A stretch of 64,000 bases of DNA from an uncultured Bdellovibrionales bacterium (GCA_964543815.1 CAZIZG010000002.1:50111-114110); one strand, 5' to 3'. Positions 14,519 to 46,407 are shown, counted from the stretch's first letter. A program made the numbers and translations. The notes: generated by a model not told the origin, from the sequence alone.

Positions 14519-14592
14519 TGTCGGGCTGCCGGGAATCGAACCCGGCCTACATCCACCCCATGGACGCGTACTGCCGATATACTACAGCCCGC
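14519..14592 (-). tRNA. tRNA-Pro (anticodon GGG); CCA not encoded
   Basis: The reverse complement folds as a cloverleaf: T-arm CCGGG-TTCGATT-CCCGG, anticodon arm CGTCC-AUGGGGU-GGATG (U33, GGG, G37), D-arm GTAT/GTAC, and a 7-bp acceptor stem CGGGCTG/CAGCCCG. The exact 5' end is uncertain because there is an extra G upstream. Confidence 0.72.
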
Positions 14593-16043: not shown

Positions 16044-16892
16044 TTACTGTGCGAAAGCACAGACCATATCCTGACACTGATAAACAATATCTCCTTCCTC
16101 ATCAGTCCGATGAATAGTAATCCCCGCCTGTCGTAATCGGTCAACTACTTCTGGCGCTGGATGCCCATAATTGTTTTTACCCACTGAAATAATAGCCTCT
16201 TTCGGATGGATAAGTTTGAGCCAGGCTTCGCTCGTCGAGTACTTAGAGCCATGGTGCGCCGCCTTGAGCACCGTAACAGGCATTTCCTCTGGCAGCACCG
16301 TTTCCTCGTGTGGCAAATCCCCCGTCAACAAAAAACTGGTCTCGCCATAGACGAAGCGTGCTACAATACTCCCTTCATTGGTATTACTGTTGGATAACTC
16401 TTTAGAGAGTGGTGAAAGCGGATACTCAATCGTCAGCGTTCCCCCCTGTGGCAAGGTAAGAGTCGCTCCTCGAAAGACCGTCGTGGCCTCACCTCCAGTC
16501 GCGCGCACTGTTGCCTCATGAAAGAGCTGTGAGGTCTCAGTTTCACTTTCAGCACCGCTGGTCAATACATGCTTCACGTGATAGGTATCAAGAAGCATCG
16601 GCAAGCCACCAATATGGTCCGCGTCCGGATGGGTCGCCACCACAAATTCAATAGTACGGTCCCAAAAAGGCACGTGCCGCCCAATTCGGGCTAAGAGCTC
16701 TTTGCCGGTTCGTCCTCCATCAATGAGAATTTGAACACCGCCCTGAGAAATAAGGATGGCGTCACCCTGACCAATATTGAGAAAAGTAACGCTCGTTTGT
16801 TGCTCGAGGAGTGACAAGTGCCACAGGAGTAGCCCGCCCATTACCACAATCAGACCTATGATGAGCAATCCCAGTTTATACCCGGATTTCAT
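16044..16892 (-). CDS. ComEC/Rec2 C-terminal metallo-beta-lactamase domain protein (TM helix plus MBL fold)
   Basis: HPDADH metal-binding motif and an N-terminal TM helix. Overlaps the upstream ComEC membrane ORF by 17 nt in a different frame. Confidence 0.8.
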   Translation of the reverse strand: MKSGYKLGLLIIGLIVVMGGLLLWHLSLLEQQTSVTFLNIGQGDAILISQGGVQILIDGGRTGKELLARIGRHVPFWDRTIEFVVATHPDADHIGGLPMLLDTYHVKHVLTSGAESETETSQLFHEATVRATGGEATTVFRGATLTLPQGGTLTIEYPLSPLSKELSNSNTNEGSIVARFVYGETSFLLTGDLPHEETVLPEEMPVTVLKAAHHGSKYSTSEAWLKLIHPKEAIISVGKNNYGHPAPEVVDRLRQAGITIHRTDEEGDIVYQCQDMVCAFAQ

Positions 16893-18351
16893 AAATGTAT
16901 CGTGGAAAAATTCGTCCCACCACTAGAATACACAGGAAAAGACAAGCGTACCAGACGAGAAATGCCGTGAAACCAAAGTGAGCAACCGTAATACTGGTGC
17001 CAGGGATATTACCCAACCATTCAACCGTACGGGTCATAATCGTAAGAATCAGGTAGGCAAGTGTCGCCAAGAAAACGTGTGTCCCTGGCCAAAGGAGATA
17101 GAGAAAAGCCGATCCAAAGGCTGTAGTCATCGCAAAAGGCACAAGAAGCACCAGGAAATTTCCCACCACAATGAGGGGTGAAAATGCCTGAAAAGACAAG
17201 AGGATAATCGGGAGAACAAAGATCTCCACCGAAAGCGTCATAAGCACTACCTCACCCACCTGCTTCAGTACCGCCCGCTTCGAACACAGACGCCCCTGAT
17301 AGGGAGCAATAAAAAGAATGCCAAGCGTGGCGAGGAACGATAATTGAAACCCTACATCGTATCGGAGCAGAAGCGGATTATGGACAAGCATGATTACTCC
17401 AGCAAGCAGAAGTGCGTTCACTGGCTGCGCCAGACGTCCGGTTTGGAACGCGATAAAGACGATACTCGCCATAGCTCCAGCTCGAGCCGCTGAGGCAGGC
17501 ATACCAATCATAATAATGAAACAGACAATTCCAATCAGCGCTGTCCAGATAGCGTGGCGCCGCCACAACCCCAGAAAAAGTCCGAGAGAAAGGAGAAGTT
17601 CCGCGATGATGGTAATGTTGTAACCTGAAACGGCAATCATGTGGGAGAGGCCGATACGCGTGAAACTCTCCTTCAGTTCCTGTGGTAGATACCCATCGCC
17701 ACCAAGGAGGAGTCCCTTGGCTAAACCGGCTTCAGGCTCTGAGAGTACTTGTGCGAGCGCTTGCTCTAACCACTGTTTCGGCTGATAAAAATACCCCATT
17801 GCTCGCCCGATATTGTCAGGTGGCAAAAATGCGACTGACTGAGCCAGAGGACATAGATAGCCAATTCCCTCTTTGGCCAGATACATGCGGTAGTCAAAAT
17901 CGGAATCAAAATTCTTGGGCAATTCCAGAGTACACTGGAATAAAAGCACGTCACCCGCTTCAAAACGGGAGCCAAGTGGCGCCTGCCACAACACGGCGAC
18001 CGTCGGACAAACTTGATTCTCGCACTCAGTATAACGGACAATTGTACGCCGATAAAAATCTCGATCCTCCGGATCATTCACTATCCGAACCACACCAATC
18101 ACTAGAGTCGAAGGTACTGAAAGTTTCTGGTATTCTTCGCTACGCACGAAAGCAAGCCATGCTCCTATCCCAAACGCAGCTACTAACACAACAAGTGACA
18201 GCGCCGTCTTGAATTGGAAAGCCACCCACAGAGAAAACAATAGAGCGGCAACAAGAAGGAGAAACGACATGCCCTTCAATCCAAAAGAACCAGCCAAAAT
18301 CCCAGCAACGAATGATAGTAACGTAAAGAAGAATACTCGCTCTTTCTCCAT
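16876..18351 (-). CDS. ComEC/Rec2 N-terminal polytopic membrane (competence channel) domain protein
   Basis: 491 aa with at least 10 hydrophobic helices, in a competence-domain-like arrangement. Together with 16044..16892 it equals a full-length ComEC. Confidence 0.8.
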   Translation of the reverse strand: MEKERVFFFTLLSFVAGILAGSFGLKGMSFLLLVAALLFSLWVAFQFKTALSLVVLVAAFGIGAWLAFVRSEEYQKLSVPSTLVIGVVRIVNDPEDRDFYRRTIVRYTECENQVCPTVAVLWQAPLGSRFEAGDVLLFQCTLELPKNFDSDFDYRMYLAKEGIGYLCPLAQSVAFLPPDNIGRAMGYFYQPKQWLEQALAQVLSEPEAGLAKGLLLGGDGYLPQELKESFTRIGLSHMIAVSGYNITIIAELLLSLGLFLGLWRRHAIWTALIGIVCFIIMIGMPASAARAGAMASIVFIAFQTGRLAQPVNALLLAGVIMLVHNPLLLRYDVGFQLSFLATLGILFIAPYQGRLCSKRAVLKQVGEVVLMTLSVEIFVLPIILLSFQAFSPLIVVGNFLVLLVPFAMTTAFGSAFLYLLWPGTHVFLATLAYLILTIMTRTVEWLGNIPGTSITVAHFGFTAFLVWYACLFLCILVVGRIFPRYIYEIRV

Positions 18352-18389: not shown

Positions 18390-18836
18390 CTATTTCAACT
18401 TTTCGAGAGCCTTAAGGAAACTCCTGGCACTCCCAAATGACTTGTACACAGAAGCGAAGCGGATATAAGCCACCTCATCAACATTCTTTAACTTTTCCAT
18501 AATGAGGGTACCGATTTCTCGGCTCGGAATTTCTGAAACCTGTTTTTCGTGAAGTACATATTCAATTTCCCCTAAAATCTTTTCAATTTTTTCTTCGGCC
18601 AGAGGACGCTTTTCAAATGCTCGACGTAGACCCTTCTCAATCTTAGTCTTGTCATACTCCTCCTTGTGACCATCTTTCTTGACGATGAGTAATCGAAAAA
18701 TCTCTACTTCTTCATAGGTACTGAAGCGAGCCGCACACTTCTCACATTCACGCCGACGCCGAATAGCCCGTCCCTCTTGGGTTTCGCGGGAATCAACAAC
18801 GCGGGTATCAGGATGACCACAAAAAGGGCAAAGCAT
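18390..18836 (-). CDS. nrdR: Transcriptional repressor NrdR
   Basis: Starts MLCPFCGHPDTRVVDSRE (zinc ribbon) and carries an ATP-cone, 148 aa. Confidence 0.9.
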   Translation of the reverse strand: MLCPFCGHPDTRVVDSRETQEGRAIRRRRECEKCAARFSTYEEVEIFRLLIVKKDGHKEEYDKTKIEKGLRRAFEKRPLAEEKIEKILGEIEYVLHEKQVSEIPSREIGTLIMEKLKNVDEVAYIRFASVYKSFGSARSFLKALEKLK

Positions 18837-18894: not shown

Positions 18895-19794
18895 TTAGTG
18901 AACAACAAGTACCGTCCCAATATCAGCCCACTCATAGACGTATTGAGCACTTCCCATCCCGAGCCGGATACATCCATGCGATACCGGACGACCAAGATGA
19001 CTTGCCCCTTCCTTGTAACCACCCGGCCATTCCGGCAATTCATGAATACCGAATTTTCCATCAGGGGTAAACGCCATCCAGAACGGCATGTACAGACCAT
19101 ACGCCTTGGACCAAGGACGCACGGCCTTGTTCTGTACAGAAAACTCCCCTCTGGGTGTGTCCATCCCCCGCTTACCGGAAGAAATCAAGTACTGCTTAAC
19201 TGCTTGGCCATCCTGAAAAAGCACCATCGTTTGACTTGCAATATCGACATCGATATATTTTCCTTCCGTCCGTCGTGCCATGACAGTGGCGGGTGCCACA
19301 TCAAGTGGCGCCACGGTAGTGGTCCGCTGAGTGGTAAAACTCGTTTCAATCAAGGGCCTATACACTCCATCGGGTGTTTCTCGCGGAACATAAGAGATCC
19401 GAAGTATATAACGCGTGCCATCACGCAAAGGCTCTTTGGGTAATAACCGAAACTCTGTTTTCTCTGGATTATTTTCGTACACTACCTCCACCAAAGGGTC
19501 GAGTTCGAAGTGAATATAATACGATTTAACCGACTCCTGAAAACGCACGACAATAGGATCCTCAATCCCAAGAAGTACTTCGGTTGCATCCTCTTCTGGA
19601 ATCACTTCGACCAGACGTGGCGGAAAGACTGTTGGTACTGTGCTCGTAGTCGTGTCGATTACTATCGGTTCAGTTCGAGCAGACGAATCCTGATTGGGAT
19701 TAAACACCCACACGCCAATACCAGAAAGCACCAAAAGAAATAGCCAGAATTTTAAAAAATGAGAGAAGTTTTTGGGTGAAAACTGTATAGACAT
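18895..19794 (-). CDS. L,D-transpeptidase (YkuD domain) with an N-terminal membrane anchor
   Basis: C-terminal …GRPVSHGCIRL… (catalytic His/Cys) and an N-terminal hydrophobic helix. Confidence 0.85.
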   Translation of the reverse strand: MSIQFSPKNFSHFLKFWLFLLVLSGIGVWVFNPNQDSSARTEPIVIDTTTSTVPTVFPPRLVEVIPEEDATEVLLGIEDPIVVRFQESVKSYYIHFELDPLVEVVYENNPEKTEFRLLPKEPLRDGTRYILRISYVPRETPDGVYRPLIETSFTTQRTTTVAPLDVAPATVMARRTEGKYIDVDIASQTMVLFQDGQAVKQYLISSGKRGMDTPRGEFSVQNKAVRPWSKAYGLYMPFWMAFTPDGKFGIHELPEWPGGYKEGASHLGRPVSHGCIRLGMGSAQYVYEWADIGTVLVVH

Positions 19795-19844
19795 GATTTT
19801 GTTTCGCTACAGAGATTCTTCATTCAGCATATCAAGAATCATTA

Positions 19845-19882
19845 CAAAAAGAAAAAGTCATCCGAGTGTTCCCGAATGACTT
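19845..19882 (-). terminator. Putative terminator after the receiver-domain gene
   Basis: 7-bp stem AAGTCAT/ATGACTT with a 14-nt loop, followed on the minus strand by TTTTCTTTTTG. Weak. Confidence 0.35.
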
Positions 19883-19895
19883 GGCGGTTCCGCTA

Positions 19896-20291
19896 TCAAG
19901 CGGTGGCGGCGCGGCTCTCCAAAGCTTGACGAATAACTCCTTCAAGCTCTGCCCTGGTGAAAGGCTTGGCGATGAGGCCAGCCGCCCCGTACTCCAGAGC
20001 AAGCGCCCGGTCCTCCGTCCGAGGATCAAGCGTCATCATGAGCACCGGCACATGCTTCAGACTGTCGTCGGCCTTGATGGCCTGGAGGAGCCCAAAGCCA
20101 TTCAGGCTGGGCATGTTGATATCGGTCAGAACGAGGTCATACTCGGCTACCCGGAGCAGAGAAAGTGCCTCGACCCCATCCGCCGCTTCGACGGTCTGTG
20201 CTTTCATGGCCCGGAGCAACATGCCGACACTTCGGCGCATGGCCAATGAGTCGTCAACGATCAAGACTCGAAGATAAGCAAGTTCGGTCAT
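19896..20291 (-). CDS. Stand-alone response-regulator receiver (CheY-like) protein; GC-rich, compositionally foreign
   Basis: VLIVDDSLAMRR…DLVLTDINMP…AKP (Asp pocket and phospho-acceptor Asp context), 131 aa. Visibly much GC-richer than neighbouring genes. Confidence 0.85.
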   Translation of the reverse strand: MTELAYLRVLIVDDSLAMRRSVGMLLRAMKAQTVEAADGVEALSLLRVAEYDLVLTDINMPSLNGFGLLQAIKADDSLKHVPVLMMTLDPRTEDRALALEYGAAGLIAKPFTRAELEGVIRQALESRAATA

Positions 20292-20299
20292 GTGTCCCC

Positions 20300-20638
20300 C
20301 TAGAGAGCAGTCTCGGCAGGAACTTGACTGAGCTCATTGTTGGCCCAGGCCAGGTAGAGAGCATCCAGTCGCCGCATCATTTCGGCAACCACCGCGGTAC
20401 GCACCACCCATTCCCGGTCCATCCCGACCACGGACATGCGTACCTCGAGCGCCCGCTTCTCGCCATCAATCCAGTCGTGCATCACCAGAATCTCTGGCGG
20501 ACGGAAAGGACTGACAGCAAGCTGTTGTAAGCGCCTGACCATATCAGGCCTCAGCATTTGAATCATCTTCATCTCCTCAGATTGGAAAGGAGGCAGCGCC
20601 TCCGAACGCGAAATCATGTCCGATTTCGGACCACTCAA
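20300..20638 (-). CDS. Hypothetical protein (112 aa), GC-rich, co-oriented 8 nt upstream of the receiver gene
   Basis: ORF with the same GC-rich codon bias as the receiver gene. No recognisable family. Confidence 0.5.
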   Translation of the reverse strand: MSGPKSDMISRSEALPPFQSEEMKMIQMLRPDMVRRLQQLAVSPFRPPEILVMHDWIDGEKRALEVRMSVVGMDREWVVRTAVVAEMMRRLDALYLAWANNELSQVPAETAL

Positions 20639-20664
20639 CCTACCATATTTCCGTGTTTCTGTCC

Positions 20665-20698
20665 ATCAAACCAAACTAAAACCCGAGGTCTTCCCTCG
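20665..20698 (-). terminator. Intrinsic terminator after the AT-rich orphan gene
   Basis: Minus strand reads CCCGAGG-gaaga-CCTCGGG followed by UUUUAGUUUGGUUUG. Confidence 0.55.
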
Positions 20699-20735
20699 GG
20701 TAAATCAGTCCAACAGCAACGGGACTAGCTTAGAT

Positions 20736-21419
20736 TTAATTTTCTCTAAGCCAACTCAAGGCAATATCAATGTTCTCTTCAGCGTGTTTCCCTAATCTAA
20801 CCTCATTTGCTAGCCAAAATCTTAGGCCATCTGTCTTGTTTATAAAATTATCTACAAACAAATGTATTCTTCCGTCAGCCATTTTCATGAACACCATACC
20901 AGATTGATCAGCTACTTCTTTCGCCTGCTTATAATTTTCCCCGCCCATTCTAGTATTTAACTGATACCCATTTTCAGGAATTACCATATGCGTAAGCTTA
21001 TTGCGCAAGTCATCCCATACCTTAAAAAGGTCATTCTGGGGCATCCCCCAACTGATGTGAGCATCTTCCATTAATTGTTTAAATGCATCTGTCTCGTTAA
21101 TCTGCCCAACACGTTTAACTAAAACCCGATCTTTAATTTCTGGATGTTCTTTAAAAATTGGTTTCAACAACTCTTTAGCATGATCCTTTTGAGTTTTTGT
21201 AACCACATCCCTCCCATTCAGAATTGCATTTATTTTTGCTAAATATCCGATTACAGCAAATAAGCCTAAGACTATAAGAAAGTTTCCGCCACCTATTTCT
21301 TTAATCTCACTAAAAACCGCGGGGTGTTCAGCGCGGGCCCAAACAAAAGTATTTGTATCGGCTATTATGCTAAATGGACGATTTTCAATGAGAGAAGCTA
21401 GCTCTTCTAATTTATCCAT
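20736..21419 (-). CDS. Hypothetical protein (227 aa, one predicted TM helix), AT-rich orphan
   Basis: Long ORF whose composition is markedly AT-richer than its surroundings. No recognisable domain. It has its own terminator and sits right after the ftsZ terminator. Confidence 0.55.
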   Translation of the reverse strand: MDKLEELASLIENRPFSIIADTNTFVWARAEHPAVFSEIKEIGGGNFLIVLGLFAVIGYLAKINAILNGRDVVTKTQKDHAKELLKPIFKEHPEIKDRVLVKRVGQINETDAFKQLMEDAHISWGMPQNDLFKVWDDLRNKLTHMVIPENGYQLNTRMGGENYKQAKEVADQSGMVFMKMADGRIHLFVDNFINKTDGLRFWLANEVRLGKHAEENIDIALSWLREN

Positions 21420-21430
21420 GGAATTCTATA

Positions 21431-21458
21431 TCTATTAAAAAGCGCCTCGTAGGGCGCT
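21431..21458 (-). terminator. Intrinsic terminator after ftsZ
   Basis: AGCGCC-cuacga-GGCGCU on the minus strand followed by UUUUUAAUAG. Confidence 0.55.
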
Positions 21459-21463
21459 CGTTA

Positions 21464-22702
21464 TTATTTCTTCATCTTGCGACGGATAAAGGCCGGGATT
21501 TCGAGGTCTTCTTCCTCGACCAGTTCTTTCGATTCGCTCCGAGGAGCTATGCCACGGGGCTGAATCTTTTCGTCAATAATCATGACTGGCTGTTCAATCT
21601 TCCGGGACGGGAAGGTAATAACCTCATCGAGAATTTCCTCTTCGTCCTTTTCTTGCTCCTCCTCTACCACGGCCATCTGAGCGGCCCGCTGACGACTCGC
21701 GACACTCGGAGCACGGTTGATGAGACCGGGCATTTCTTTAGTACGAGGAATATCGAAACCGGTCGCCACCACCGTAATCTGAATTTCACCCTTCCTGATC
21801 TGATCATCCGTTACCGCACCAAAGATGACCTTGGCATTCGGATCAATGTTTTCCGTAATGATATTAGCAGCCTCGTTGATTTCAAGCATCGTGAGATCGC
21901 TTGAACCAGAGATATTAAACAGCACGCCCTTGGCACCATCGATGGAAAGCTCAAGAAGCGGACTGTTGATAGCCGCCTTGGCAGCCTCTACCGCTCGATT
22001 CTCACCGGAAGCAATACCAATACCCATAAGCGCGCTCCCGCTATCTTCCATGATGGCCCGCACATCGGCAAAGTCCACATTGACGATACCAGGCTTGGTA
22101 ATAAGGTCAGAAATACCCTGGACACCCTGGCGGAGCACATCGTCCACGATACGGAAAGCATTTACGAGGGTGGTCTGACGATCGATAATGGAAAGAAGTT
22201 TGTCGTTCGGAATAGTAATGAGCGTGTCGACGCGGTCCTTCAAATTCTCAAGAGCTTCTTCAGCAATAGATCGTCGCTGTGATCCTTCGAAGGCAAACGG
22301 CTTGGTGACAACACCAACAGTGAGCGCGCCTAACTCTTTGGCAGTTTCAGCCACGATAGGAGCAGCCCCAGAACCGGTACCACCACCGAGGCCACAGGCC
22401 ACAAACACCATGTCAGCACCCTTCAACACTTCCTGAATTTCATCACGATTTTCTTCGGCTGCCTGACGACCAATTTCCGGATTCATACCAGCACCAAGTC
22501 CCTTGGTCAGGTTCTTACCGATATGAACTTTCTCCTGAGCCTTAGAATGATGGAGTGCCTGAGCATCCGTGTTGATAGCAACAAATTCTACCCCCTTAAT
22601 CTTAGCATCAATCATCCGAGAAATGGCGTTGTTGCCAGATCCACCAACACCCACCACTTTGATTTTTGCGAATGTCTCGATATCGGGTTTGATCTCAGCC
22701 AT
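21464..22702 (-). CDS. ftsZ: Cell division GTPase FtsZ
   Basis: Contains [10 protein letters not shown] and [10 protein letters not shown] tubulin signature motifs, with a C-terminal acidic linker and conserved tail. Confidence 0.97.
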
Positions 22703-22965: not shown

Positions 22966-24225
22966 CTAGGGCAAAAATCGAGCTGACCAATGCTTCACCT
23001 TACTGACCATAGTTTGTAACCCTTCCGGGAGAGCCCCAAACATCTTGTGAGGAGAAAACGTTTTGCGCTCTCCGCCCGTCTCCTGTGACAGGAGCAGTAA
23101 TCCAATCACTGTAGCAAACTGCGGATTGTCCACTTCATCCAGGATGCCACCGAGCGCCTTGGGGTATCCGATCTGTGCCGGCAAACGAAGAATTCGTTTA
23201 GCTAAATCCACTACACCAGGAAGGAGCGCTCCACCACCGCACAGCACCGCCCCACCTGGGAGCAGTCCTTCGCGGCCAATATTTTTCAGTTCGGTGTTCA
23301 CAAAAGAAAATATTTCCTCAAGTCGCGCTTCGATTATTTCAGCCACATGATGACGTGATACCATTCCCTCTTCCTGCGAATCAATCGATCCGAGATCAAT
23401 CTCTTCTTTCTTGCCTACCTCGTCAGGCAAGGCCGTTCCGTACTGAAGCTTTACGGCTTCGGCCACTTCAATCGACGTGCGAAGCCCAATAGCAATGTCA
23501 TTGGTAACATGAGCTCCGCCAACGGGAAGAACGGCTAGGTGAAGCAAATCCCCATCCTCAAAAACAGCGAGTGATGTGGTGCTACCACCGATATTGATAA
23601 GTACCGTGCCAAGCTCCTTTTGTTTATCATGCAGCACCGCCTCGGCCGATGCCAATGGTTCCACCACAAAGTTTTCCGCACTCGTACCAGCCTGTTCCAA
23701 GCTCCGGCTGATATTTTTGATATGAGCCGTGCTATCACTCACCACAAGTGCATTCATCTCGAGACGCACCCCATGCATCCCAAGTGGATCTTTGATATTC
23801 TTCTGATCATCTAGTCGATAGTCTTTGGGAATAACATGAACGATTTCACGATTGAGCGGCAGAGTAAGGCGAGCCTGCACCTCCTCAAGAACCCGAGACA
23901 TATCATCATAAATCACTTCACCGTCAGCCCGACCAACAGCAATCACTCCAAGAGCGTTTTGGCAAGCGATTTCTGTACCAGAAACACTCGCTACAACACT
24001 TTCAGCCGGATGACCAGCCATATGCTCAGCCTGTTCCAAAGCAGCATTGCAGGCTTTGGCTACTGCCTCAGCATTCACTACTGACCCTCGTCGAATTCCC
24101 TGCGAAGGAGCCGTTCCAATCCCAACCACTCGGAGCGGTTCTTCTTCCGTAATTTCCTGTGCGATGACAGCCCGAATACTCGAAGATCCGATATCGAGCC
24201 CGACATGGTAATTACTTTTCGACAT
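22966..24225 (-). CDS. ftsA: Cell division protein FtsA
   Basis: Actin-like ATPase starting …GLDIGSSSIRAV…, 419 aa, immediately upstream of ftsZ. Confidence 0.93.
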   Translation of the reverse strand: MSKSNYHVGLDIGSSSIRAVIAQEITEEEPLRVVGIGTAPSQGIRRGSVVNAEAVAKACNAALEQAEHMAGHPAESVVASVSGTEIACQNALGVIAVGRADGEVIYDDMSRVLEEVQARLTLPLNREIVHVIPKDYRLDDQKNIKDPLGMHGVRLEMNALVVSDSTAHIKNISRSLEQAGTSAENFVVEPLASAEAVLHDKQKELGTVLINIGGSTTSLAVFEDGDLLHLAVLPVGGAHVTNDIAIGLRTSIEVAEAVKLQYGTALPDEVGKKEEIDLGSIDSQEEGMVSRHHVAEIIEARLEEIFSFVNTELKNIGREGLLPGGAVLCGGGALLPGVVDLAKRILRLPAQIGYPKALGGILDEVDNPQFATVIGLLLLSQETGGERKTFSPHKMFGALPEGLQTMVSKVKHWSARFLP

Positions 24226-38281: not shown

Positions 38282-41200
38282 CTATGGCGCCACTTCTTTC
38301 CAGTTGTAGTCACAAGAGCGAGTCCCCGGACAATTGATGGTGTTACCACAGCCATCATTAGTAATAACATACTGAGAACCCACGCAGACATTGTCTGTAT
38401 CAGCAGTATGATTGACACAATTATCCGTCGGAACACAAACGTTTGAACATATCGTTCCGTTCCAAAAAAGAGGGATCGCACAGGTAGCACCAACACTTTT
38501 AGTACTGAGTGTTATTCCGTCATGGACGAAAGTAAAGGTATTCCCTCCAGCAGAAACGTGCTTAATTGGTCGGATAACCGTACCCGGGGTAGCTGATGTC
38601 GCTGTACTAAACTCGATACCATCCTGCTGAATTGAGGGAGTCATTGTGAGATTCGAACTCGTCCAAGCAACATAGATATTACACGTTGAAGCACCATTTG
38701 GTATGGTACAAGCCCCATTAGTGAAGTTGGCCGTTGGTACCCCCGCCTCACAAATCCCAAGCGTTGCATTCCATACACCCGCACAAGTCCCACGAACCGT
38801 GACCATATCGCGCGTGGCAAGAGTATCATCACGCAAACGTACCGAATTATTCCCAAATGTTATGGGAAATGCTACGGCCGTACCAGACAGAGCAGTTGAA
38901 TACGTAATATTGCGAGTCCAATTATAGACACTGGCACTCGCCAAATTCTGTGTCCACCAGGTGAAATTGACATCGCACGTTGATTGACCCACGGGAATCG
39001 TACAGCTCGTTGGCCAAGCCGAAAGCATCCCCCCACTTGCCTGGCAAATACCCTGATTCCAGATGAGCGCACCGAAACAAACCGCTGTCATAGTAGCCTG
39101 TTCAAACAATCCTCCCTGATCTCGCAATGTAACCGTGTGAGAGCCGTAATCCAAAGCAACCGGCTGGTTACTCGCTGCTGGATTGTTACTCGTATAGCCC
39201 GTTCCAGAAACTGAGAGTTCGATTGGCGGCACCGCATCGCCGGCAGTTGTCCAGCTCACTCGCCCAGTACAGGTACTATTACCCGCCAAAATAGTACAAC
39301 CTTGAGCCTGAGTAATACCACTCGTTGTTCCCATTCGAAAAGTCACACTGATAGTACCATTAGAAGTAATATTATTAAACGTATACGAACCCGGAGCGCC
39401 AATATTAACCGGGCCGCTCCCCGTATTTACGATAACAGTATCAATAACGTATGGGTAATTTTCTGTAATAGTAAAAGTGCGACTGCTTCCGGCAGGAATA
39501 CCACTGATACTGCCTGAGGGAGAAATGAACCCACCTGAACCAGCCGTAGCAGTAATGGTATAGGTCGTGGGAATAGGTGCGGTGCACGTACCACTATTGG
39601 TACCGACCGGACTACCAGCACCAAGACAGGTCCACTGATAATTAAGCGCTGTGTCAGCCGGTGAATTCGAGTACGTTCCGGAAACACACGTTTCTGCGGT
39701 CACGCCACAGACTCCGTTTATGGTCGTGACACAAGCATTCGGAGCACTCGTATTAACCGCTCCTGACCAACTTGATGACCCGCTTCCATTGGTCGCCCGC
39801 ACGGTATAGCTGTGCGCCGATCCCGCCATGAGACCCGTGTGACTGAAGCTTGAAGTAGCCCCATCATAAATCTGAGTTCCACCGTCGCGGAGCTGATAAC
39901 TGGTAGCGCCGGAAACACTGTTCCAACCAATGTTTATAGTACCACTGCCGCAGGCAGCTGGTGATGCATTAAGCGATGTAGGTGTGCCAGGAATGCCGGC
40001 GGCACAAGCATTCGGAGCATTTGCGTTAACTACCCCCGACCAAGCCGACGATCCGCTCCCGTTCGTTGCTCGTACCGTATAACTATGGGAGGATCCATCA
40101 GTCAGTCCCGTGTGATTAAAGCTCGGAGTGGCCCCATCATAAATCTGAGTTCCACCGTCGCGGAGCTGATAACTGGTAGCGCCGGAAACACTGTTCCAAC
40201 CAATGTTTATAGTACCACTGCCGCAAGCTCCGGGATTTGCTGAAAGCAACGAGGGTGTACCAGGGACACTCACTGCCTTCGCTTCCGTACACGAGGGGGA
40301 ATTAGATCCGCCACCTGAACCCATACAGGTCCAGTTATAGGTAGTAGCGGTATCACCATCCAACCGAGTTGTTCCAGCAACACAATTGTAGTGCGTCGGG
40401 GCACAAACTCCATCTACCCGAGGAGGATTCACGGTGATAGTTGTCGTATCAGTAGCTGTTCCTGCCACATTAGAACAACTGATGGTATAGGTAAATACCC
40501 CGGTCGGTAGACCCGTCAACCTATAATTACTATAGCTCAAGTCACTCCTACTGATACCATTTCCAGAAACCGAGCAACTCGTAGCACTAGTCGAACTCCA
40601 AGTCAGTGCTGCGTTCTCACCCACAGTGATAACGGTACCACTTCCAGCATGTACTACGGAATCCCCTCCCGTTATCACTGAAAATGTTTTTCGCCACCAA
40701 GATTCTTCGACAGACGCGACTGGACCACTTGCTGAAATAGTAGCGGTTGGAGCTACTACTGCTGGATTCACCTGAAGCGTCCGCGTCAATGAGGTAGCCG
40801 ACCCACCGGGGCCCGTACAGGTCACACTCTGTGTGTAGGTCCCAGCGCTCATCGCCGGTGTACTAATTCCAGCATTACTCGTTCCTACATTGCCATTCCA
40901 GATACCTGACCCCGTACAAGAAGTGGCATTCGTTGAGGAGAAAGATATTGATGATGTACTCCCAGCTGTTATAGTAGCGGGATTAAAGGGACTCAGTGTC
41001 ACCGTTGGAGCAGGTGGAGCGGCTATCATAAAATTTAACCGCCCTATATCCATAGACCAGGCCAAATCGGCGCCGGAGCTATTTCTGACGTTGATGACGA
41101 GACGCAACGAAATAAAGTGCCCTCCCGATGACATGCCTCCCGGAATAGCAAATGAGGCATTATAAGGACCAACCACTGTTCCAAAAAATGACATCCCTGA

Positions 41201-42679
41201 AAAGGGCACTTCTACATATCCCCAGGCCGGCAAAGTCTGAGTACCGACTATATCAGCATCGTAGATGGGTCCTGAAAAGTACCCTACCGTTGCAACAGTC
41301 TTTGAAGCTGCCCCCATAGGAGTATCCTTTTCAAAGGTGTACGTCGTTGAAAGTGTCATTGTGTCTCCTGGAACGTATGATGCCTTATCTGAAGATACCG
41401 TAGCTGTTGATGTGACCGCCACTTCACCCATATACATTTGTGTAGTAGACAGGGTCATGGCATGAGTCTGATGCGCTACCCCTATAAGCCCTCCTCCTAC
41501 CACAATAAGAAAAACTCCAACCTTCATGACGCTCGATCGACGGAACAAGGCTCGCCCTCGAAAGAAAACAGCCATGATAACAATGAGTCCCACTATTGCG
41601 TACCCGACCCTTTGTTTGGTAAAAAAAGGAGATGCAACATCCTTCGAGGCATCCTGCGGAAGAAAAAGATTCTGATTCGTCATTTTTTCCAAAGAGAATG
41701 ATTGCTCAATACTATCAAGCACATCACCCGATGAACTAAGCAACGTCACCTCCGCCACACCAGAACGACACGATGCCTGAAATGAAAACTCTGCGACAGC
41801 GCCCATACTATCATTAGTGACATCGGCGCATTCCCCTTGGTCGTGCTTCAAAACAAGGTGTACTCGCAAATCCCTCGTGGGTCGATTAATGGCAACCACC
41901 CCTGACACACTTCCTTCTTTTTGTCCTTTGTACAGAAGGACATTCGCAATTTTACTGGCGGGACCCGGGACCCGAAAACGGAGCACAGAGACCTTTCCTT
42001 GTGTCGTATGAATGATAGCGACATACCCACCAGCGGAAAGTTTTGGCTGCACTACTACAGCCTTGCCGGCCTCTAGATTTACTTTTTCTGATCCTGCCTC
42101 AACACCAAAAAATGATTCTTTGTGATAAATAATATCCAACGTTTCATCTCCTTCTTGAGAAATACAGGAAAAACCACTTTCATTTCCATCAACCGAACAA
42201 GATGCTTTGCTCCCATCTCTTTCGCCAAAATCCCTTTCTGTTACCTTTTGTCTTCCCAAGGGAACACCTCTCTCGGTCTCAGCATATATCCATACTACAA
42301 CTTTACCTTCAAGAGAAACAGGAAAAACGTATGAAAGAGGCATAACCCTTACCTCCCCTTCGTGCAGAGTATCGATTTTTCCAATTGGCATTACATCAAG
42401 AGGATTACCCTCTTCATCCGTTGTAATGATTCCATAGACAATACCATTTTGCTGCCCTCGCCCCCCTAGTACCGAAAATGACCCCTCTACTCCATCTTCC
42501 CGAGATTGGACAGAAACATCTCCAACGTTGACGTCAGCTACCACCGTGGTGTGCTGTGATGATGCAGGAATATCTGCCGGCACTGATTGCATGGCTGTAT
42601 CCTCTGCTCGCACAGAAAAAACACTAAAAGAAAAAACTGCCAGAAGCACGAATCCAAATACAAAACTTCTGAAAATCAT
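38282..42679 (-). CDS. Giant cell-surface protein (~1465 aa from the ATG at 42679): signal peptide, paralog-B module with TM anchor, a second signal-peptide-like segment, then a long Ser/Thr/Gly/Cys-rich body with two tandem Fn3-like repeats
   Basis: The ORF-track version begins at a TTG (42748); the first ATG with a signal peptide is MIFRSFVFGFVLLAVFSFSVFSVRA at 42679. At aa ~385-430 the sequence reads …IVGLIVIMAVFFRGRALFRRSS-VMKVGVFLIVVGGGLIGVAHQTHA…, a TM anchor plus basic tail followed in frame by a signal-peptide-like segment. There is an internal ATG at 41527. Confidence 0.6.
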   Translation of the reverse strand: MIFRSFVFGFVLLAVFSFSVFSVRAEDTAMQSVPADIPASSQHTTVVADVNVGDVSVQSREDGVEGSFSVLGGRGQQNGIVYGIITTDEEGNPLDVMPIGKIDTLHEGEVRVMPLSYVFPVSLEGKVVVWIYAETERGVPLGRQKVTERDFGERDGSKASCSVDGNESGFSCISQEGDETLDIIYHKESFFGVEAGSEKVNLEAGKAVVVQPKLSAGGYVAIIHTTQGKVSVLRFRVPGPASKIANVLLYKGQKEGSVSGVVAINRPTRDLRVHLVLKHDQGECADVTNDSMGAVAEFSFQASCRSGVAEVTLLSSSGDVLDSIEQSFSLEKMTNQNLFLPQDASKDVASPFFTKQRVGYAIVGLIVIMAVFFRGRALFRRSSVMKVGVFLIVVGGGLIGVAHQTHAMTLSTTQMYMGEVAVTSTATVSSDKASYVPGDTMTLSTTYTFEKDTPMGAASKTVATVGYFSGPIYDADIVGTQTLPAWGYVEVPFSGMSFFGTVVGPYNASFAIPGGMSSGGHFISLRLVINVRNSSGADLAWSMDIGRLNFMIAAPPAPTVTLSPFNPATITAGSTSSISFSSTNATSCTGSGIWNGNVGTSNAGISTPAMSAGTYTQSVTCTGPGGSATSLTRTLQVNPAVVAPTATISASGPVASVEESWWRKTFSVITGGDSVVHAGSGTVITVGENAALTWSSTSATSCSVSGNGISRSDLSYSNYRLTGLPTGVFTYTISCSNVAGTATDTTTITVNPPRVDGVCAPTHYNCVAGTTRLDGDTATTYNWTCMGSGGGSNSPSCTEAKAVSVPGTPSLLSANPGACGSGTINIGWNSVSGATSYQLRDGGTQIYDGATPSFNHTGLTDGSSHSYTVRATNGSGSSAWSGVVNANAPNACAAGIPGTPTSLNASPAACGSGTINIGWNSVSGATSYQLRDGGTQIYDGATSSFSHTGLMAGSAHSYTVRATNGSGSSSWSGAVNTSAPNACVTTINGVCGVTAETCVSGTYSNSPADTALNYQWTCLGAGSPVGTNSGTCTAPIPTTYTITATAGSGGFISPSGSISGIPAGSSRTFTITENYPYVIDTVIVNTGSGPVNIGAPGSYTFNNITSNGTISVTFRMGTTSGITQAQGCTILAGNSTCTGRVSWTTAGDAVPPIELSVSGTGYTSNNPAASNQPVALDYGSHTVTLRDQGGLFEQATMTAVCFGALIWNQGICQASGGMLSAWPTSCTIPVGQSTCDVNFTWWTQNLASASVYNWTRNITYSTALSGTAVAFPITFGNNSVRLRDDTLATRDMVTVRGTCAGVWNATLGICEAGVPTANFTNGACTIPNGASTCNIYVAWTSSNLTMTPSIQQDGIEFSTATSATPGTVIRPIKHVSAGGNTFTFVHDGITLSTKSVGATCAIPLFWNGTICSNVCVPTDNCVNHTADTDNVCVGSQYVITNDGCGNTINCPGTRSCDYNWKEVAP
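39735..40285. repeat. Tandem direct repeat (2 copies of a ~273-bp unit) inside the giant surface-protein gene, encoding two ~91-aa Fn3-like modules
   Basis: A near-identical ~100-bp core (…ccccatcataaatctgagttccaccgtcgcggagctgataactggtagcgccggaaacactgttccaaccaatgtttatagtaccactgccgca…) begins at 39859 and 40132. The protein repeats read GTINIGWNSVSGATSYQLRDGGTQIYDG…YTVRATNGSGSS. Confidence 0.85.
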
Positions 42680-42808
42680 ATATAAAAAATGTTTGTTTTC
42701 TTTTTTATACCACAAATATACTCTGTTTCCAAATAATGAGATATCCAACCCTTGCTGTCATCAATGGGATTAAGGAGTAATCTTCTGTTTTGATTTCATC
42801 ATTTTTTG

Positions 42809-42865: not shown

Positions 42866-44815
42866 TCAGTTCGGTGCGAGAATGGCCCACGGCTGTGGAC
42901 CCACTCCCGCGATGACACGCTTCACGGCAAGCGTCTGGCGATCAAGTACCGCCACACTGTCACCATCGAACCAGATGTCCTTCCGGGGCAGTGCCACCCA
43001 GACTTCGTTCCCAACCAGAGTCATGCCCATGGGCATATCCCCAGTCATCACCCGTCCGGTTTCCTGAAGCGTCGCTGGATCGTAAGCCACGACATGGGAG
43101 TCGTAGTCACTCACGAGGAGTCGCTTGGTAACCGGATCGATCAGAAGTCGCATGGCATGCTGCCACTGACCCGTAAGCCCCGGCAAGCCACGTGTCACCA
43201 CGTTGCCTGTCGAAAGGGTGATGGTTGAAAGGGTGTTGTCGCCGGAGTTGGCGACAGAGAGCACCCCTCCATCCTCCACCACATCCTGCGGCACCGACCC
43301 CACCGTGAAGGTTCGGCTGATTTGGCAGGATGACTCGCAGCCAAACTCGGTCACCGTACCGGAAGTACCAGCCCGATAACCATCGCGACTCTTATAGGTG
43401 TCTTGCTCACCGTACATACCACTTCTGGCAGCATTGAGCGAGTAGAACTTTCCAGTAGTCGCCGAGTAGTGCAGCCTCATGGAGACCATGTCGGCCGGAA
43501 TGAATCCCGGCCCTGTCTCCAGCCGTTCACCCGTGAGGTGATTAAAGCAGATGACCTTGCCCTGCCAGATATAGGCGTCCGGATACTGATTGCCCAATAT
43601 CACGCACACCTGCGTCGGTGACGAAGCGACACTGTGAATCCCGTGTGCCAGAGCCGGCGCCGGATCAAGCTGGAAGGCTGAGAGCACCACTCCTGTCTCA
43701 CCATCCAGGCGATACAGAAACTGAGCGTACGTGGCCGGCGCAGCGTAGACCACGCCCGCCACCGCACTCCAAGCCAGGTGGCCATTGGTGAACTGGTAGC
43801 TCCCAAGCGCATCGCCCAGGTGTACCGTCCGCGACGCACCCGAGGCCGAGACAATGGAAACGCCCGCCTTGGTCGTGAAGTTTCCCTTCCAATTCCCCAC
43901 AAACACCTGGCCATTGGTTGTGGCCGAGCGAGTAGTGAAACTGAGGGTGGTAGCGGCACTGGGGTAGCCGAGGCTCCCCTGAATGCCGCCGACCGTGAGC
44001 GTATTGCTCGCGCCCATCGGCCAGCGCTCTTCACCCGGGAGACCCGGGAGGATGTTGACGGTCTTCCCCGCACTGTCGCAGGTAACCGTCGCCAACACTT
44101 GACCCATCTTGCCCGTCCCACTGACGCCGGTGCAATTGAGCACCTGGTCGTAGGTCAGGGTGAGCCTGGTCAGTTTGGCAACAACATCCGTTGCACCATC
44201 AGCCGGCACTTGGCGGTCAGCGGTGACAAGCGTCGCTTGCAACAACTTCGGACCGCACAGGGTCGGCTTGACCTGACACTTGAAGTCACCGAGAGCGCCG
44301 AAGCGCACGAGGACATTCCCGGTGTAGGGCCCGATGCCATACACCCCACCGACATCACTGCCGCCGACACGCACGCCCACCAGGTTGCCCCGGTAGTCAC
44401 GGTAGTCATAGGAGTTACCGTCAGCGAGCACGTTGTAGTTCGTGCTCGCCGCACCGACGAAGAGCGACGGGTAGCGTACTGCTGCCCAGTCAAAGAGCTC
44501 GTCGTTACTCACCTGGTCAGTATTGACTGCCAGGGCCTGAGCTCGTCCACCCTGACCGGTCTTGGCCGGGGTGAACCGAATTTCGATGGTCGCCGGAGCG
44601 ACTGAAGGTGGCACTGAGAGCGCCTGAGCCCGTGGCGACCCATCAAAAACGGTACCGCGGTCGACAGCTGACCCAGTGAAGGGGACTGCGACTATGGGCT
44701 TGTCAGTCACAGGAGCAGAGGGAGTAGTGGCTGATCCACCACCTCCACAACCGGAAAGCACCAGAAATGAAACCGCGGCCAGGGCCGCGCAAAGCGTACG
44801 ATAGACCGAGGCCAT
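42866..44815 (-). CDS. Lipoprotein with Ig-like and YVTN/beta-propeller-like repeats; GC-rich, compositionally foreign
   Basis: Lipobox FLVLSGC right after an N-terminal signal, 649 aa. Repeated …DSHVVAYDPATL… and …LLVSDYD… beta-propeller-like segments. Strong SD (GGAGGG) before the ATG, unlike native genes. Visibly high GC with overlapping spurious ORFs in other frames. Confidence 0.65.
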   Translation of the reverse strand: MASVYRTLCAALAAVSFLVLSGCGGGGSATTPSAPVTDKPIVAVPFTGSAVDRGTVFDGSPRAQALSVPPSVAPATIEIRFTPAKTGQGGRAQALAVNTDQVSNDELFDWAAVRYPSLFVGAASTNYNVLADGNSYDYRDYRGNLVGVRVGGSDVGGVYGIGPYTGNVLVRFGALGDFKCQVKPTLCGPKLLQATLVTADRQVPADGATDVVAKLTRLTLTYDQVLNCTGVSGTGKMGQVLATVTCDSAGKTVNILPGLPGEERWPMGASNTLTVGGIQGSLGYPSAATTLSFTTRSATTNGQVFVGNWKGNFTTKAGVSIVSASGASRTVHLGDALGSYQFTNGHLAWSAVAGVVYAAPATYAQFLYRLDGETGVVLSAFQLDPAPALAHGIHSVASSPTQVCVILGNQYPDAYIWQGKVICFNHLTGERLETGPGFIPADMVSMRLHYSATTGKFYSLNAARSGMYGEQDTYKSRDGYRAGTSGTVTEFGCESSCQISRTFTVGSVPQDVVEDGGVLSVANSGDNTLSTITLSTGNVVTRGLPGLTGQWQHAMRLLIDPVTKRLLVSDYDSHVVAYDPATLQETGRVMTGDMPMGMTLVGNEVWVALPRKDIWFDGDSVAVLDRQTLAVKRVIAGVGPQPWAILAPN

Positions 44816-44952: not shown

Positions 44953-46230
44953 TTAAAGGAGCTTTTTATAATTATCAGCCCAGTAGAGAATACCATTGAT
45001 GTATGGAGCATAGCTCGTCCCAAGATAGGCTGCGGCTGCCCGTTTCCAGGCCGACCGATTCCCATCATCTACTCCGGGAACCTTATCAAGCTTCAAGGCC
45101 ATCGCCATAACACCATCTGTTAGATTCCAGGGACTGGGTGGATTATGTCCAGTTGCTGAGGCTACCGACGACTTATAAGCGACCCAGGTGTCGGGCATAA
45201 ACTGCGCCACCCCCATAGCCCCACCAGTTCCAATATACCCTTTAGGATTACAGGATACTTTTTGTTTACGATAATCGATATCAAGTTCCTTCGTAATTGT
45301 TTTGAAAATATCACGCCGACGGAGAAAAGTGGCCCAGGCTGTCTTACCAAGTTTCTTTGCTTTATAACTCGCATTCGCTCCATCCTCAACCTGAGCATAG
45401 GTGCAACCTCCAACATTAGCACCGAGGTTTGTTTCCATTTTGAGAACTCCGAATAAAAAACCCTTAGGAACGCCCGTTTTCTTACTGGCAAAATCTACGG
45501 CATCTTCAATATCTTTAGCGTTGTAGGACTTACCAAGTATCTTATTCAAATCACCCTGCAATTCACTCAGTTCTTTTTTTAATCGATTCACCGTGGTAGC
45601 CTGGTCCTCAAGATCATCCTGGACATCATTCTTTGCCACCACCAAATTTTGTTTTTGTTTATTTTGGATAGCAAGCAGCTCTTCGTGATCTTGTTTCGCA
45701 TCTTCTAGTGTCGACTTCTCATCTACAATTTTACTTTTCGTCACATTGATGTCATCGATTATCGAGGCTATCTTTTCCTGCGTTGAGAGCAGACCCTCCT
45801 CATTTTGAAAAAAATGAGTTACATCATCCTGAGAGAGAACAATTTCCACAAGTGGCGTACCATCTGATAGATAGAGCTCCTGCATGAGGCTCCCTAAAAT
45901 TTTCCGTTCCAAGGTAAGTTGATTATCCAAATTGGCAATTTCAGCCTCTTTTTGATCGATGGTCTGACTGGTCTGATTGAGGAGATTCTGCACACGAAGT
46001 ATGGCTGCCTGAGTCGATGTCAGATTGGTCGTAATCTGGTTGAGATTACTTTGGAGAGCGCCATACTTTTTCTCAGCATCCTTCAGTTTCTTTTCCAGTT
46101 TTTCGATATCATCCTGAATCTCGTCCGCTGATTCATCAGCCTGCGCCGGATGAGCATACACACATAAGGAGAGGATTCCAAAAAATCCAAGAAAAAACAG
46201 ACTCAAAAAAGTGGTTTTGATATTGCTCAT
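44953..46230 (-). CDS. Secreted coiled-coil protein with a C-terminal MltB-like lytic transglycosylase domain
   Basis: Signal peptide at the internal Met (MSNIKTTFLSLFFLGFFGILSLCVYAHPAQA). About 230 aa of coiled coil, then …GGAMGVAQFMPDTW…, the MltB/Slt35 signature. Confidence 0.75.
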   Translation of the reverse strand: MSNIKTTFLSLFFLGFFGILSLCVYAHPAQADESADEIQDDIEKLEKKLKDAEKKYGALQSNLNQITTNLTSTQAAILRVQNLLNQTSQTIDQKEAEIANLDNQLTLERKILGSLMQELYLSDGTPLVEIVLSQDDVTHFFQNEEGLLSTQEKIASIIDDINVTKSKIVDEKSTLEDAKQDHEELLAIQNKQKQNLVVAKNDVQDDLEDQATTVNRLKKELSELQGDLNKILGKSYNAKDIEDAVDFASKKTGVPKGFLFGVLKMETNLGANVGGCTYAQVEDGANASYKAKKLGKTAWATFLRRRDIFKTITKELDIDYRKQKVSCNPKGYIGTGGAMGVAQFMPDTWVAYKSSVASATGHNPPSPWNLTDGVMAMALKLDKVPGVDDGNRSAWKRAAAAYLGTSYAPYINGILYWADNYKKLL

Positions 46231-46407
46231 AGTACCATCTAGTATATCATACCCCGGTCTTCGGGGCATTGACACGGATTCACTCTTATTCCATACTAGT
46301 CGAGTTGGTCCTGTTACTTCAGTCAACACTTGGGAATCTCCAAGGGACACTGACCTGACTGGATTAACCCTTTTTTCTAGTTCCTACCAACCAGAGGAGG
46401 TCCCGCT

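Follow-up and report, generated by a model that had tools for sequence, protein, structure and literature searches.

A probable gene-turnover hotspot in the ftsZ-nrdR gap of Moraniibacteriota, carrying a remodelled CheY-like receiver

How do a GC-rich gene pair and an AT-rich gene come to lie side by side within 1.6 kb, next to the conserved cell division genes of a bacterium with a reduced genome? The question is raised by a 64,000-nucleotide stretch of DNA (GCA_964543815.1, CAZIZG010000002.1:50111-114110), entered under the name of an uncultured Bdellovibrionales bacterium and referred to below as the window. Downstream of its ftsZ gene lie an open reading frame (ORF) for a protein of 227 amino acids (p227), a small ORF (p88) and a gene for a stand-alone receiver. 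An initial annotation had read this block as an integration hotspot holding at least two independently acquired cargos. Our analysis leads us to regard the block as, most likely, a small hotspot of gene turnover in the ftsZ-nrdR gap of the Moraniibacteriota, with two unrelated layers, one GC-rich and one AT-rich, beside a variably present L,D-transpeptidase (ykuD) gene. A search with FtsZ as the query yielded 80 species-representative loci (denoted below by L numbers), nearly all labelled Candidatus Moraniibacteriota or Patescibacteria, with ftsZ products that were 74-98% identical, and the host is an uncultured Moranbacterium of the Candidate Phyla Radiation (CPR).

The contrast in composition, which had been judged by eye, was borne out by computation. 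The 59 genes of the window that served as reference have a median GC content of 0.483 (standard deviation, estimated from the median absolute deviation, 0.025) and a median GC content at third codon positions (GC3) of 0.480 (0.056). Against these values, the receiver gene stands at 0.591 and 0.674 (robust z scores of +4.3 and +3.5), the p88 gene at 0.577 and 0.663 (+3.7 and +3.3) and the p227 ORF at 0.374 and 0.325 (-4.3 and -2.8); for a longer reading of the small ORF (20300-20638) the values are 0.566 and 0.655. The whole window has a GC content of 48.3%, and in sliding segments of 300 nt the maximum of 0.613 falls at 19950-20249 and the minimum of 0.363 at 21150-21449. Since GC3 also deviates, amino acid composition is not the cause. 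The deviation in GC content, of the kind expected for the cargo of a hotspot, is strong, but the accompanying check of codon usage gave a more modest result: by synonymous-codon likelihood the two GC-rich genes rank second and third lowest of the 59, with z only about -1.7, and their codon usage is atypical, yet not extreme for genes so short.

The case for a hotspot rests primarily on comparison with relatives. Both ftsZ and nrdR were visible in 67 of the 80 loci, and the gap counts refer to these. The distance between the two genes is at most 276 bp in 41 species representatives; it is 376-440 bp, with little or no coding sequence, in four, and 0.69-5.6 kb, with differing genes, in 22. Clustering of the ORFs in the gap produced several small recurrent families and many singletons. 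Among the 14 closest representatives, with FtsZ identities of 92-98%, ftsZ is followed directly by nrdR in ten and ykuD lies between them in four (L015, L016, L018 and L022), and the three compositionally deviant genes are together absent from all of them, which was the outcome expected of an insertion when the synteny comparison was first proposed. Genes for p227 and p88 were found in none of the 80 loci, and a receiver occupies the gap in L057 alone. The initial annotation had taken the transpeptidase gene as one border of the block. That gene is itself variable: one BLAST cluster of six gap genes comprises those of the window, L016, L018, L022, L093 and L102, and a further copy in L015 was also found by tblastn. 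As it is present in only a handful of loci, ykuD is an accessory occupant of the gap, and the true anchors are ftsZ and nrdR.

Loci that carry parts of the block show how its components are combined. The nearest relative with the GC-rich module, L093, whose ftsZ gene is 88.7% identical at the nucleotide level, has the order ftsZ, p89 (the counterpart of p88), receiver, ykuD and nrdR, and it lacks p227. L102 retains the native ftsZ terminator, the operon leader and the receiver, and the small gene is absent. In L094 and L095 a p81 gene is followed by a gene for 141 amino acids and then by a second type of receiver, and in L104 and L105 a p91-receiver pair lies within a larger island of the gap. 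Because L093 and L102 hold different subsets, p227, p88 and the receiver each vary on their own. This pattern of presence and absence between conserved core genes, extending over 67-80 loci, identifies the gap as a turnover hotspot and the three flagged genes as accessory, and the proposal that the hotspot holds two or more cargos of independent origin is borne out when the close representatives, L093 and L102 are compared. We take the ancestral state of the gap to be ftsZ, its terminator and then nrdR.

Islands of larger size also recur in the gap, in L104 (3686-7588) and L057 (12006-14162) as well as in L052 and L087. They encode a ParB-like protein of 366-371 amino acids (TIGR00180, 1.3e-09, below the cut-off), a protein of 317-339 amino acids without assigned function that is common to four loci, and further such proteins. 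The second, distinct receiver type adjoins nrdR in L104 (L104b), L094 and L095.

No integrase or transposase gene, flanking repeat or tRNA gene was found at the site, the only tRNA gene of the window being located at 14520-14591. For this reason the genes were probably exchanged by way of the conserved flanks. Oliveira et al. (2017; PMC5635113) describe hotspots without mobile elements that recombine at their flanking core genes, especially in transformable bacteria. The gap resembles them in being a core-flanked interval with differing accessory genes, fast turnover and deviating composition, and in having no integrase, tRNA or repeats. It differs from them in its very small size (one to four genes), in lying in a reduced CPR genome, and in being defined across species of a phylum and not across strains of a species; recombination at the flanks would, moreover, be a deduction in our case.

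The more recent of the two layers appears to be an AT-rich insertion. In blastn alignments with L093 and L102, homology is lost at 21465, at the ftsZ stop codon, and regained at 20704 and 20701, respectively, and L093 has 25 nt in place of about 760 bp in the window. The inserted DNA has a GC content of 0.36-0.39 and it is flanked by neither direct nor inverted repeats. The hairpin ACCCGAGG...CCTCGGGT-TTT, which lies about 30 nt past the ftsZ stop codon in L093 and L102, follows p227 in the window. From this break in homology and the displacement of the native hairpin 760 bp downstream, it can be deduced that a cassette entered downstream of the ftsZ stop codon and ahead of the native terminator. 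A second terminator-like hairpin (21436-21458), absent from L093 and L102, lies within the insertion and now serves as the ftsZ terminator. With p227 a strict ORFan (see below), the insertion that carries it is taken to be a recent layer, seen only in the population represented by the window. The initial annotation had given each piece of the block its own terminator, and three hairpins followed by T-runs (21441-21458, 20681-20701 and 19855-19882), evident in the sequence and in a terminator scan, indeed divide it.

Abrupt shifts in composition over so short a distance might also be produced by faulty assembly or binning. That the mosaic is such a chimera is nevertheless so improbable as to be almost negligible. 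The same layout was recovered in independently assembled contigs from several samples, in both ENA and Logan assemblies, at 99.94-100% identity, and it is this recurrence that speaks against an assembly artefact. Related arrangements are present in other assemblies, and the junctions coincide with the boundaries of genes and terminators.

The origin of the receiver can be traced in some detail. It matches Pfam Response_reg (PF00072) with 90.3 bits (cut-off 30.2, E 1.2e-25) over profile positions 1-110 of 111, and its best matches in a PDB search were all CheY (1djm, 3oo0, 1a0o and others). Identity amounts to 41% with Escherichia coli CheY and to 53% with a betaproteobacterial-type CheY. The NCBIfam equivalog for CheY, NF007901, has a curated cut-off of 189 bits, which the L104 receiver passes with 190.6 bits; the L057 receiver scores 161.6 bits and that of the window, with 94.6 bits, fails. 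The members of the window clade (window, L093, L102 and the proteins P0007-P0011) are 46-56% identical to the L104 and L057 receivers and share with them the stretch DINMP..NGF.LL.AIKAD.SLKH.PVLM, in which E. coli CheY differs. The shared motif and the series of scores are most simply explained if Moranbacteria captured a proteobacterial cheY across the phylum boundary and the gene then diverged within them, and on sequence evidence the receiver is a descendant of proteobacterial CheY.

The near-canonical CheY is encoded between ftsZ and nrdR at 3100-3495 of L104 (GCA_052034935.1, contig JBPOIB010000008.1), and also in L105. Identity of the L104 protein amounts to 66% with E. coli CheY and to 79% with P0015, a betaproteobacterial-type CheY whose gene lies between motAB and cheZ, beside flhDC and flhBAF, on a contig of 64% GC. 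The genes for the L104 protein and P0015 match at 79.4% of nucleotides across 388 nt, the match being limited to the cheY ORF, and the L104 gene gives the impression of having crossed between phyla recently and on its own.

Divergence in the window clade has been uneven along the protein. Residues D13, D14, D57, T87 and K109 of the window receiver align with D12, D13, D57, T87 and K109 of CheY, and throughout an alignment of 18 receivers D13, D57 and K109 are invariant, position 12 is acidic and position 87 is T or S. In contrast to this conserved pocket, TAEARKE...GYIVKPF of CheY is replaced in the window clade by TLDPR...GLIAKPF, such that a segment of 25 residues in CheY corresponds to TLDPRTEDRALALEYGAAGLIAKPF. 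The substitutions relative to CheY include A88L, A90P, Y106L and V108A, and the equivalents of CheY positions A88, A90, K92, I95, Q100 and V108 are all replaced in the window receiver. In CheY, the alpha4-beta5-alpha5 face binds FliM, CheZ and the P2 domain of CheA, and the replaced segment corresponds to that face. CheY proper is recognised by the aromatic switch residue Y106 together with conservation of this face, and the window protein has leucine at that position. Because the pocket residues are intact and the alpha4-beta5-alpha5 face is replaced, the phosphorylation chemistry looks to have been kept and the output surface rewritten.

The window receiver thus resembles CheY in consisting of a single receiver domain of 131 amino acids with equivalents of the phospho-acceptor pocket. 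It differs in its score below the NF007901 cut-off, in the leucine at Y106 and in its surroundings, since no CheA, CheW, CheZ, FliM or other flagellar or chemotaxis genes occur among the called genes within 10 kb on either side. Among stand-alone receivers, DivK, CpdR, PilG, PilH and Cle proteins work outside chemotaxis, through contact with other proteins. Like these, the window receiver has no output domain and must bind a partner, and it is encoded beside cell division genes; unlike them, it showed no sequence-specific affinity to that group, CheY being the best match throughout. A defence-related role for the receiver pair, which the initial annotation had also raised, found no support, as PADLOC returned only marginal matches of the receiver type (E at least 1e-3), which are negligible. 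The host phylum is a further difference from CheY, since, according to published surveys, neither flagellar nor chemotaxis functions are present in Patescibacteria (PMC7137472). CheY-like genes have been noted in some ultra-small metagenome-assembled genomes (PMC9938205), and the literature yielded nothing on CheY in Moranbacteria.

How has the GC-rich pair spread? In Moranbacteria with 57-59% GC (L094 and L104), it is close to host composition, and in hosts of intermediate GC content (window, L093, L102 and L057) the receiver has a GC3 of 0.63-0.76 against 0.43-0.55 for the neighbouring genes. It was only in part correct to regard the block as foreign cargo: the GC-rich pair is no one-off alien arrival, as it recurs at this junction in several lineages. 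By receiver identity, the window is closer to L102 (65%) than to L093 (60%). The flanks give the opposite order, with ComEC at 56% for L102 versus 79% for L093 and NrdR at 90% versus 97%, and the MBL-fold protein (metallo-beta-lactamase fold) also favours L093. Between the window and L093, identity is much lower for the receiver (60%) and for p88 (62.5%) than for FtsZ (98%), NrdR (97%), YkuD (85%) and ComEC (79%). Such incongruence fits a lateral exchange of alleles among Moranbacteria through conserved flanks.

The partner of the receiver had been described as an unknown protein of 112 amino acids and as a domain of unknown function (DUF). The longer form results from reading on to an upstream TTG codon. 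Since all homologues start at the position equivalent to ATG 20566 (MIQML, MFQML or MVKML), and this ATG is preceded by GAGGAG at a distance of 6 nt, the protein has 88 amino acids; nor does it belong to a named DUF or any Pfam family. The spacing of 8 nt between its stop codon and the receiver ATG, noted earlier, is real. Searches with a profile of four close homologues revealed a family of 59 cluster representatives among 1.84 billion proteins, most of them of 76-91 amino acids, uncharacterised and, so far, only in CPR-like contexts, with the consensus YRPxEI..L..EIxGE.R.AE...G.ID....IV.MKL.LD.LY..WA.GEI. Profile searches with the family gave no match in Pfam, including the families of receiver phosphatases and binding peptides (Spo0E, CheZ and FliM-N type), and none among PDB sequences; p88 itself had no match in NCBIfam, PHROG or PADLOC. 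A scan of metagenome contigs with the p88 alignment (A1) and one of viral contigs with the family member P0189 were likewise negative. An AlphaFold2 model built on a 47-sequence alignment confidently predicts three helices (predicted local distance difference test score, pLDDT, 89), the third of which carries the conserved motif L-D-x-L-Y-x-x-W (window 20300-20350; LDALY..W). The motif resembles the CheY-binding peptides of FliM and CheZ (IDALL/VDDLL) and SQELD of Spo0E, and may hint at docking to a receiver. Fold searches gave generic helical matches only, led by CsoR-family repressors with non-significant scores, and a relationship to CsoR, RcnR or FrmR was rejected on the absence of the CsoR ligand residues.

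The association of p88 with the receiver is close in some lineages. The small gene lies 8-13 nt upstream of the receiver gene in the window, L093 and L104/L105, and a family member is found one gene away from the second receiver type in L094/L095; the pairing is real in the closest subfamily and not universal. The 141-aa gene of L094 and a 140-aa gene that follows the long form in L106 were compared as possible relatives and proved to be unrelated. The long form of L106 (8001-8492) is a protein of 163 amino acids in which the p88 domain constitutes the C-terminal part, and the domain also occurs at the C-terminus of proteins of about 156-165 amino acids (P0149, P0169, P0172, P0179 and P0183). 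In L108-L111 (for example, L108 877-4547), a p88-family gene lies between a NERD-domain gene with further genes of no assigned function and an rve integrase gene.

Upstream of p88, a leader is conserved in the window, L093, L102, L094 and L095, which implies that the operon travels with its own control region; in L102 it has been retained despite the missing small gene. The leader contains a putative promoter, TTGATG (20664-20669) and TATGGT (20642-20647) with a 16-nt spacer, which agrees with the consensus at 8 of 12 positions and was not flagged in the sequence scan, as well as the GAGGAG ribosome-binding site. It also contains a hairpin, GGTCCG-AAAT-CGGAC (20618-20632, minus strand), that is conserved in L093 and L102 and maintained in L094/L095 by a C-to-T change that yields a G-U pair. 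The leader and hairpin had no match in Rfam, and the hairpin may be a regulatory or stabilising element.

Taken together, these observations suggest the following order of events. The older layer would be the p88-receiver operon with its leader and terminator, its receiver deriving from a proteobacterial cheY that was captured by Moranbacteria at the ftsZ-nrdR junction and is still near-canonical in one lineage. The two genes would be co-transcribed, and the receiver would be phosphorylated on D57, with either a small molecule or a kinase encoded at some other locus as the donor. Its remodelled face would then make the protein contact by which it signals to a non-flagellar partner, for which p88, as target or modulator, is the prime candidate. 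The recent layer would be the 760-bp AT-rich insertion, which placed a hairpin and the ORFan p227 after the ftsZ stop codon and before the native terminator. Entry and exchange would have followed DNA uptake, with recombination taking place in the strongly conserved flanks. A signalling module is a plausible role for the receiver-p88 pair, considering the intact phospho-acceptor residues and the conserved two-gene operon. The more specific idea that a cheY captured by CPR bacteria was rewired at its output face in the window clade, Y106L included, to operate with the p88 family as a new two-protein phospho-switch with a non-flagellar target is speculative, and we consider it unlikely to hold in full; candidate targets of such a switch may be cell division, given the neighbouring ftsZ and ftsA, or type IV pili.

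Several observations weigh against the overall reading. No kinase, Hpt or chemotaxis gene occurs within 10 kb on either side of the receiver, and a crude motif scan of the 64-kb window detected no kinase H-box or G-box. The p88-receiver linkage is known from few lineages, adjacent in the window, L093 and L104/L105 and one gene apart in L094/L095, and family members occur with no receiver nearby in L112, L106 and L108-L111, such that the function of p88 may be independent of the receiver. For the recent layer, p227 has neither a homologue nor a usable structure model nor any polymorphism in the population, the contigs being 99.94-100% identical. Finally, highly expressed genes of the window are mildly enriched in GC3 (0.55-0.61), and the derived class of receiver is common to hosts with ComEC proteins only 56% identical and is still GC3-rich in them; the excess of GC may have been kept by selection or biased gene conversion and not reflect recent import.

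The last of these points leads to an alternative account of the GC-rich pair, namely that it is long resident and owes its composition to codon selection for expression or to GC-biased gene conversion and not to a foreign origin. The genes that show the mild enrichment, against a median of 0.48, are those for ribosomal proteins and EF-Tu; receivers of the derived class are encoded in the window, in L093 and in L102, with a GC3 of 0.63-0.67 in all three, despite much diverged flanks, and the synonymous-codon deviation is, as stated above, modest. We nevertheless find this account improbable, because the GC3 of 0.66-0.67 lies above the values of genes with high expression, a receiver is missing at the site from 12 of 14 close species representatives and from 79 of the 80 loci retrieved, receiver identities are incongruent with those of the flanks, and the lineage traces to a proteobacterial-type cheY in a setting of 64% GC.

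The operon of the window may, on the other hand, be a reduced version of the larger island, and it could be argued that the receiver and p88 are its decaying, non-functional leftovers. The island of L104 comprises p91, CheY, the ParB-like protein of 371 amino acids, genes for 317, 228 and 163 amino acids and a second receiver, of which the window keeps two; its receiver has lost Y106 and scores far below the CheY equivalog threshold, and no partner kinase was seen among the gene calls within 10 kb or in the crude motif scan. Decay of this kind seems to us distinctly less credible than long residence. Neither ORF is disrupted, members that are only 54-68% mutually identical show no variation in the phospho-acceptor residues, and the remodelled face is itself conserved within the window clade, as are the leader, the ribosome-binding sites, the gene spacing of 8-13 nt and the terminator.

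What the AT-rich layer encodes is a separate question. The 227-aa gene was described at the outset as having no recognisable domain, and this agrees with the searches: there was no match in Pfam, NCBIfam, PHROG, PADLOC or PDB sequences, nor in phage, plasmid (tblastn) or viral-contig collections, and among 5.8 billion proteins p227 found only itself, making it a strict ORFan. A weak match to HHH_RecD2 (E 0.0028) fell below the cut-off and was set aside. AlphaFold2, run on the single sequence, gave an unusable model with a pLDDT of 37.5. A strongly hydrophobic helix occupies residues of about 46-67 of the protein, and residues 139-144 read RNKLTH, which conforms to the Rx4-6H motif of HEPN proteins; by a rough estimate, about 1-2% of proteins as large as p227 would contain an RNxxxH motif by chance.

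Other AT-rich genes have been found immediately downstream of ftsZ in hosts with GC-richer ftsA and ftsZ genes (56-59% GC). In L112 (3779-4471), a gene of GC content 0.36 encodes a HEPN_AbiV protein of 230 amino acids (Pfam 8e-13). In L099 (5022-6652), an SLFN_AlbA_2 gene (26.6 bits, cut-off 25.3) is accompanied by a gene for a protein of 244 amino acids, the N-terminal segment of which is hydrophobic and may span the membrane; the post-ftsZ genes of L099 have a GC content of 0.37-0.39 and those for FtsA and FtsZ 0.58-0.59. The site just after ftsZ seems to gather small AT-rich cassettes, some with abortive-infection or Schlafen-type domains.

Could the block, or at least p227, then be anti-phage cargo, with p227 a divergent HEPN or abortive-infection toxin possibly regulated by the receiver pair? 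Its motif and positional analogy suggest that p227 may encode a small toxin or defence protein that is HEPN-like and associated with the membrane, and such a role is a reasonable guess as defence-domain AT-rich genes occupy the same position elsewhere. With HEPN_AbiV (PF18728), p227 shares its size (227 versus 230 amino acids), AT-richness in a GC-richer host, the position immediately 3' of ftsZ, as in L112, and the Rx4H motif. It differs in sequence, being neither similar to the L112 protein in pairwise comparison nor matched by any HEPN family in Pfam even at E up to 10, and permissive thresholds brought no match in PADLOC, PHROG or NCBIfam either. Owing to this lack of similarity to the defence-domain proteins, we keep the probability of a defence role for p227 low. 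That the block is defence cargo as a whole is similarly doubtful, since p227 is separated from the receiver operon by a terminator and was acquired separately, the receiver pair carries no defence signature, and the RNxxxH motif may be fortuitous. A turnover hotspot with two unrelated layers is the reading that we prefer.

Small islets of accessory genes between core genes are of a known kind, and current concepts are left unchanged by this well-resolved example of a known process, which has one testable twist: the capture and remodelling of CheY can be traced in a non-motile CPR lineage. CPR bacteria, or Patescibacteria, have tiny genomes with, reportedly, few signalling genes and no chemotaxis. 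The gap offers a traceable series, from a near-canonical CheY in a Moranbacterium through intermediates to a derived copy with retained phosphorylation residues and a rewritten face, which would constitute a natural experiment in the re-purposing of a receiver after cross-phylum transfer. It also nominates the uncharacterised 59-cluster p88 family as a possible receiver partner, and the site after ftsZ, on which single AT-rich genes have landed repeatedly, lends itself to a search for CPR defence genes.

The features of the region are summarised in Table 1. The Tubulin and FtsZ_C domains of FtsZ were called on an identical contig.

Table 1. Features of the ftsZ-nrdR region in coordinates of the 64-kb window; all genes of the described region are on the minus strand.
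Feature	Position	Strand	Remarks
ftsA	22966-24225	-	
ftsZ	21464-22702	-	412-aa ORF; conserved upstream anchor of the variable gap
AT-rich insertion	20705-21463	-	about 760 bp; holds p227 and, at the ftsZ-proximal end, a terminator-like hairpin
Terminator-like hairpin	21436-21458 (stem 21441-21458)	-	AGCGCC-ctacga-GGCGCT then TTTTT
p227 ORF	20736-21419	-	227 aa
Native ftsZ terminator	20678-20701 (scan: 20681-20701)	-	ACCCGAGG-loop-CCTCGGGT then TTT
Leader of the p88-receiver operon	20567-20677	-	conserved; from alignment of window, L093, L102, L094 and L095
p88 ORF	20300-20566	-	88 aa; predicted three-helix protein
Receiver gene	19896-20291	-	131 aa, stand-alone; derived CheY, judged by sequence
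Operon terminator of p88-receiver	19855-19882	-	12-bp stem then TTTTCTTTTT
L,D-transpeptidase (ykuD) gene	18895-19794	-	Pfam YkuD 4.6e-21; GC 0.478, host-like
nrdR	18390-18836	-	Zn_ribbon_NrdR and ATP-cone domains; conserved downstream anchor of the gap
comEC	16876-18351	-	two genes away
MBL-fold protein gene	16044-16892		

Two further GC-rich outlier ORFs are present elsewhere in the window. One, at 42866-44815 (minus strand), encodes 649 amino acids, has a GC content of 0.607 (robust z +4.9) and gave a beta-propeller YVTN repeat as its sole match; the other, at 46408-46989 (plus strand), encodes 193 amino acids with a GC content of 0.574 and had no family match. Both adjoin a giant ORF of 1488 amino acids with fn3/Ig-like domains (38282-42748) and a gene for an SLT-domain coiled-coil protein (44953-46350), and together they may represent a second variable or acquired block.

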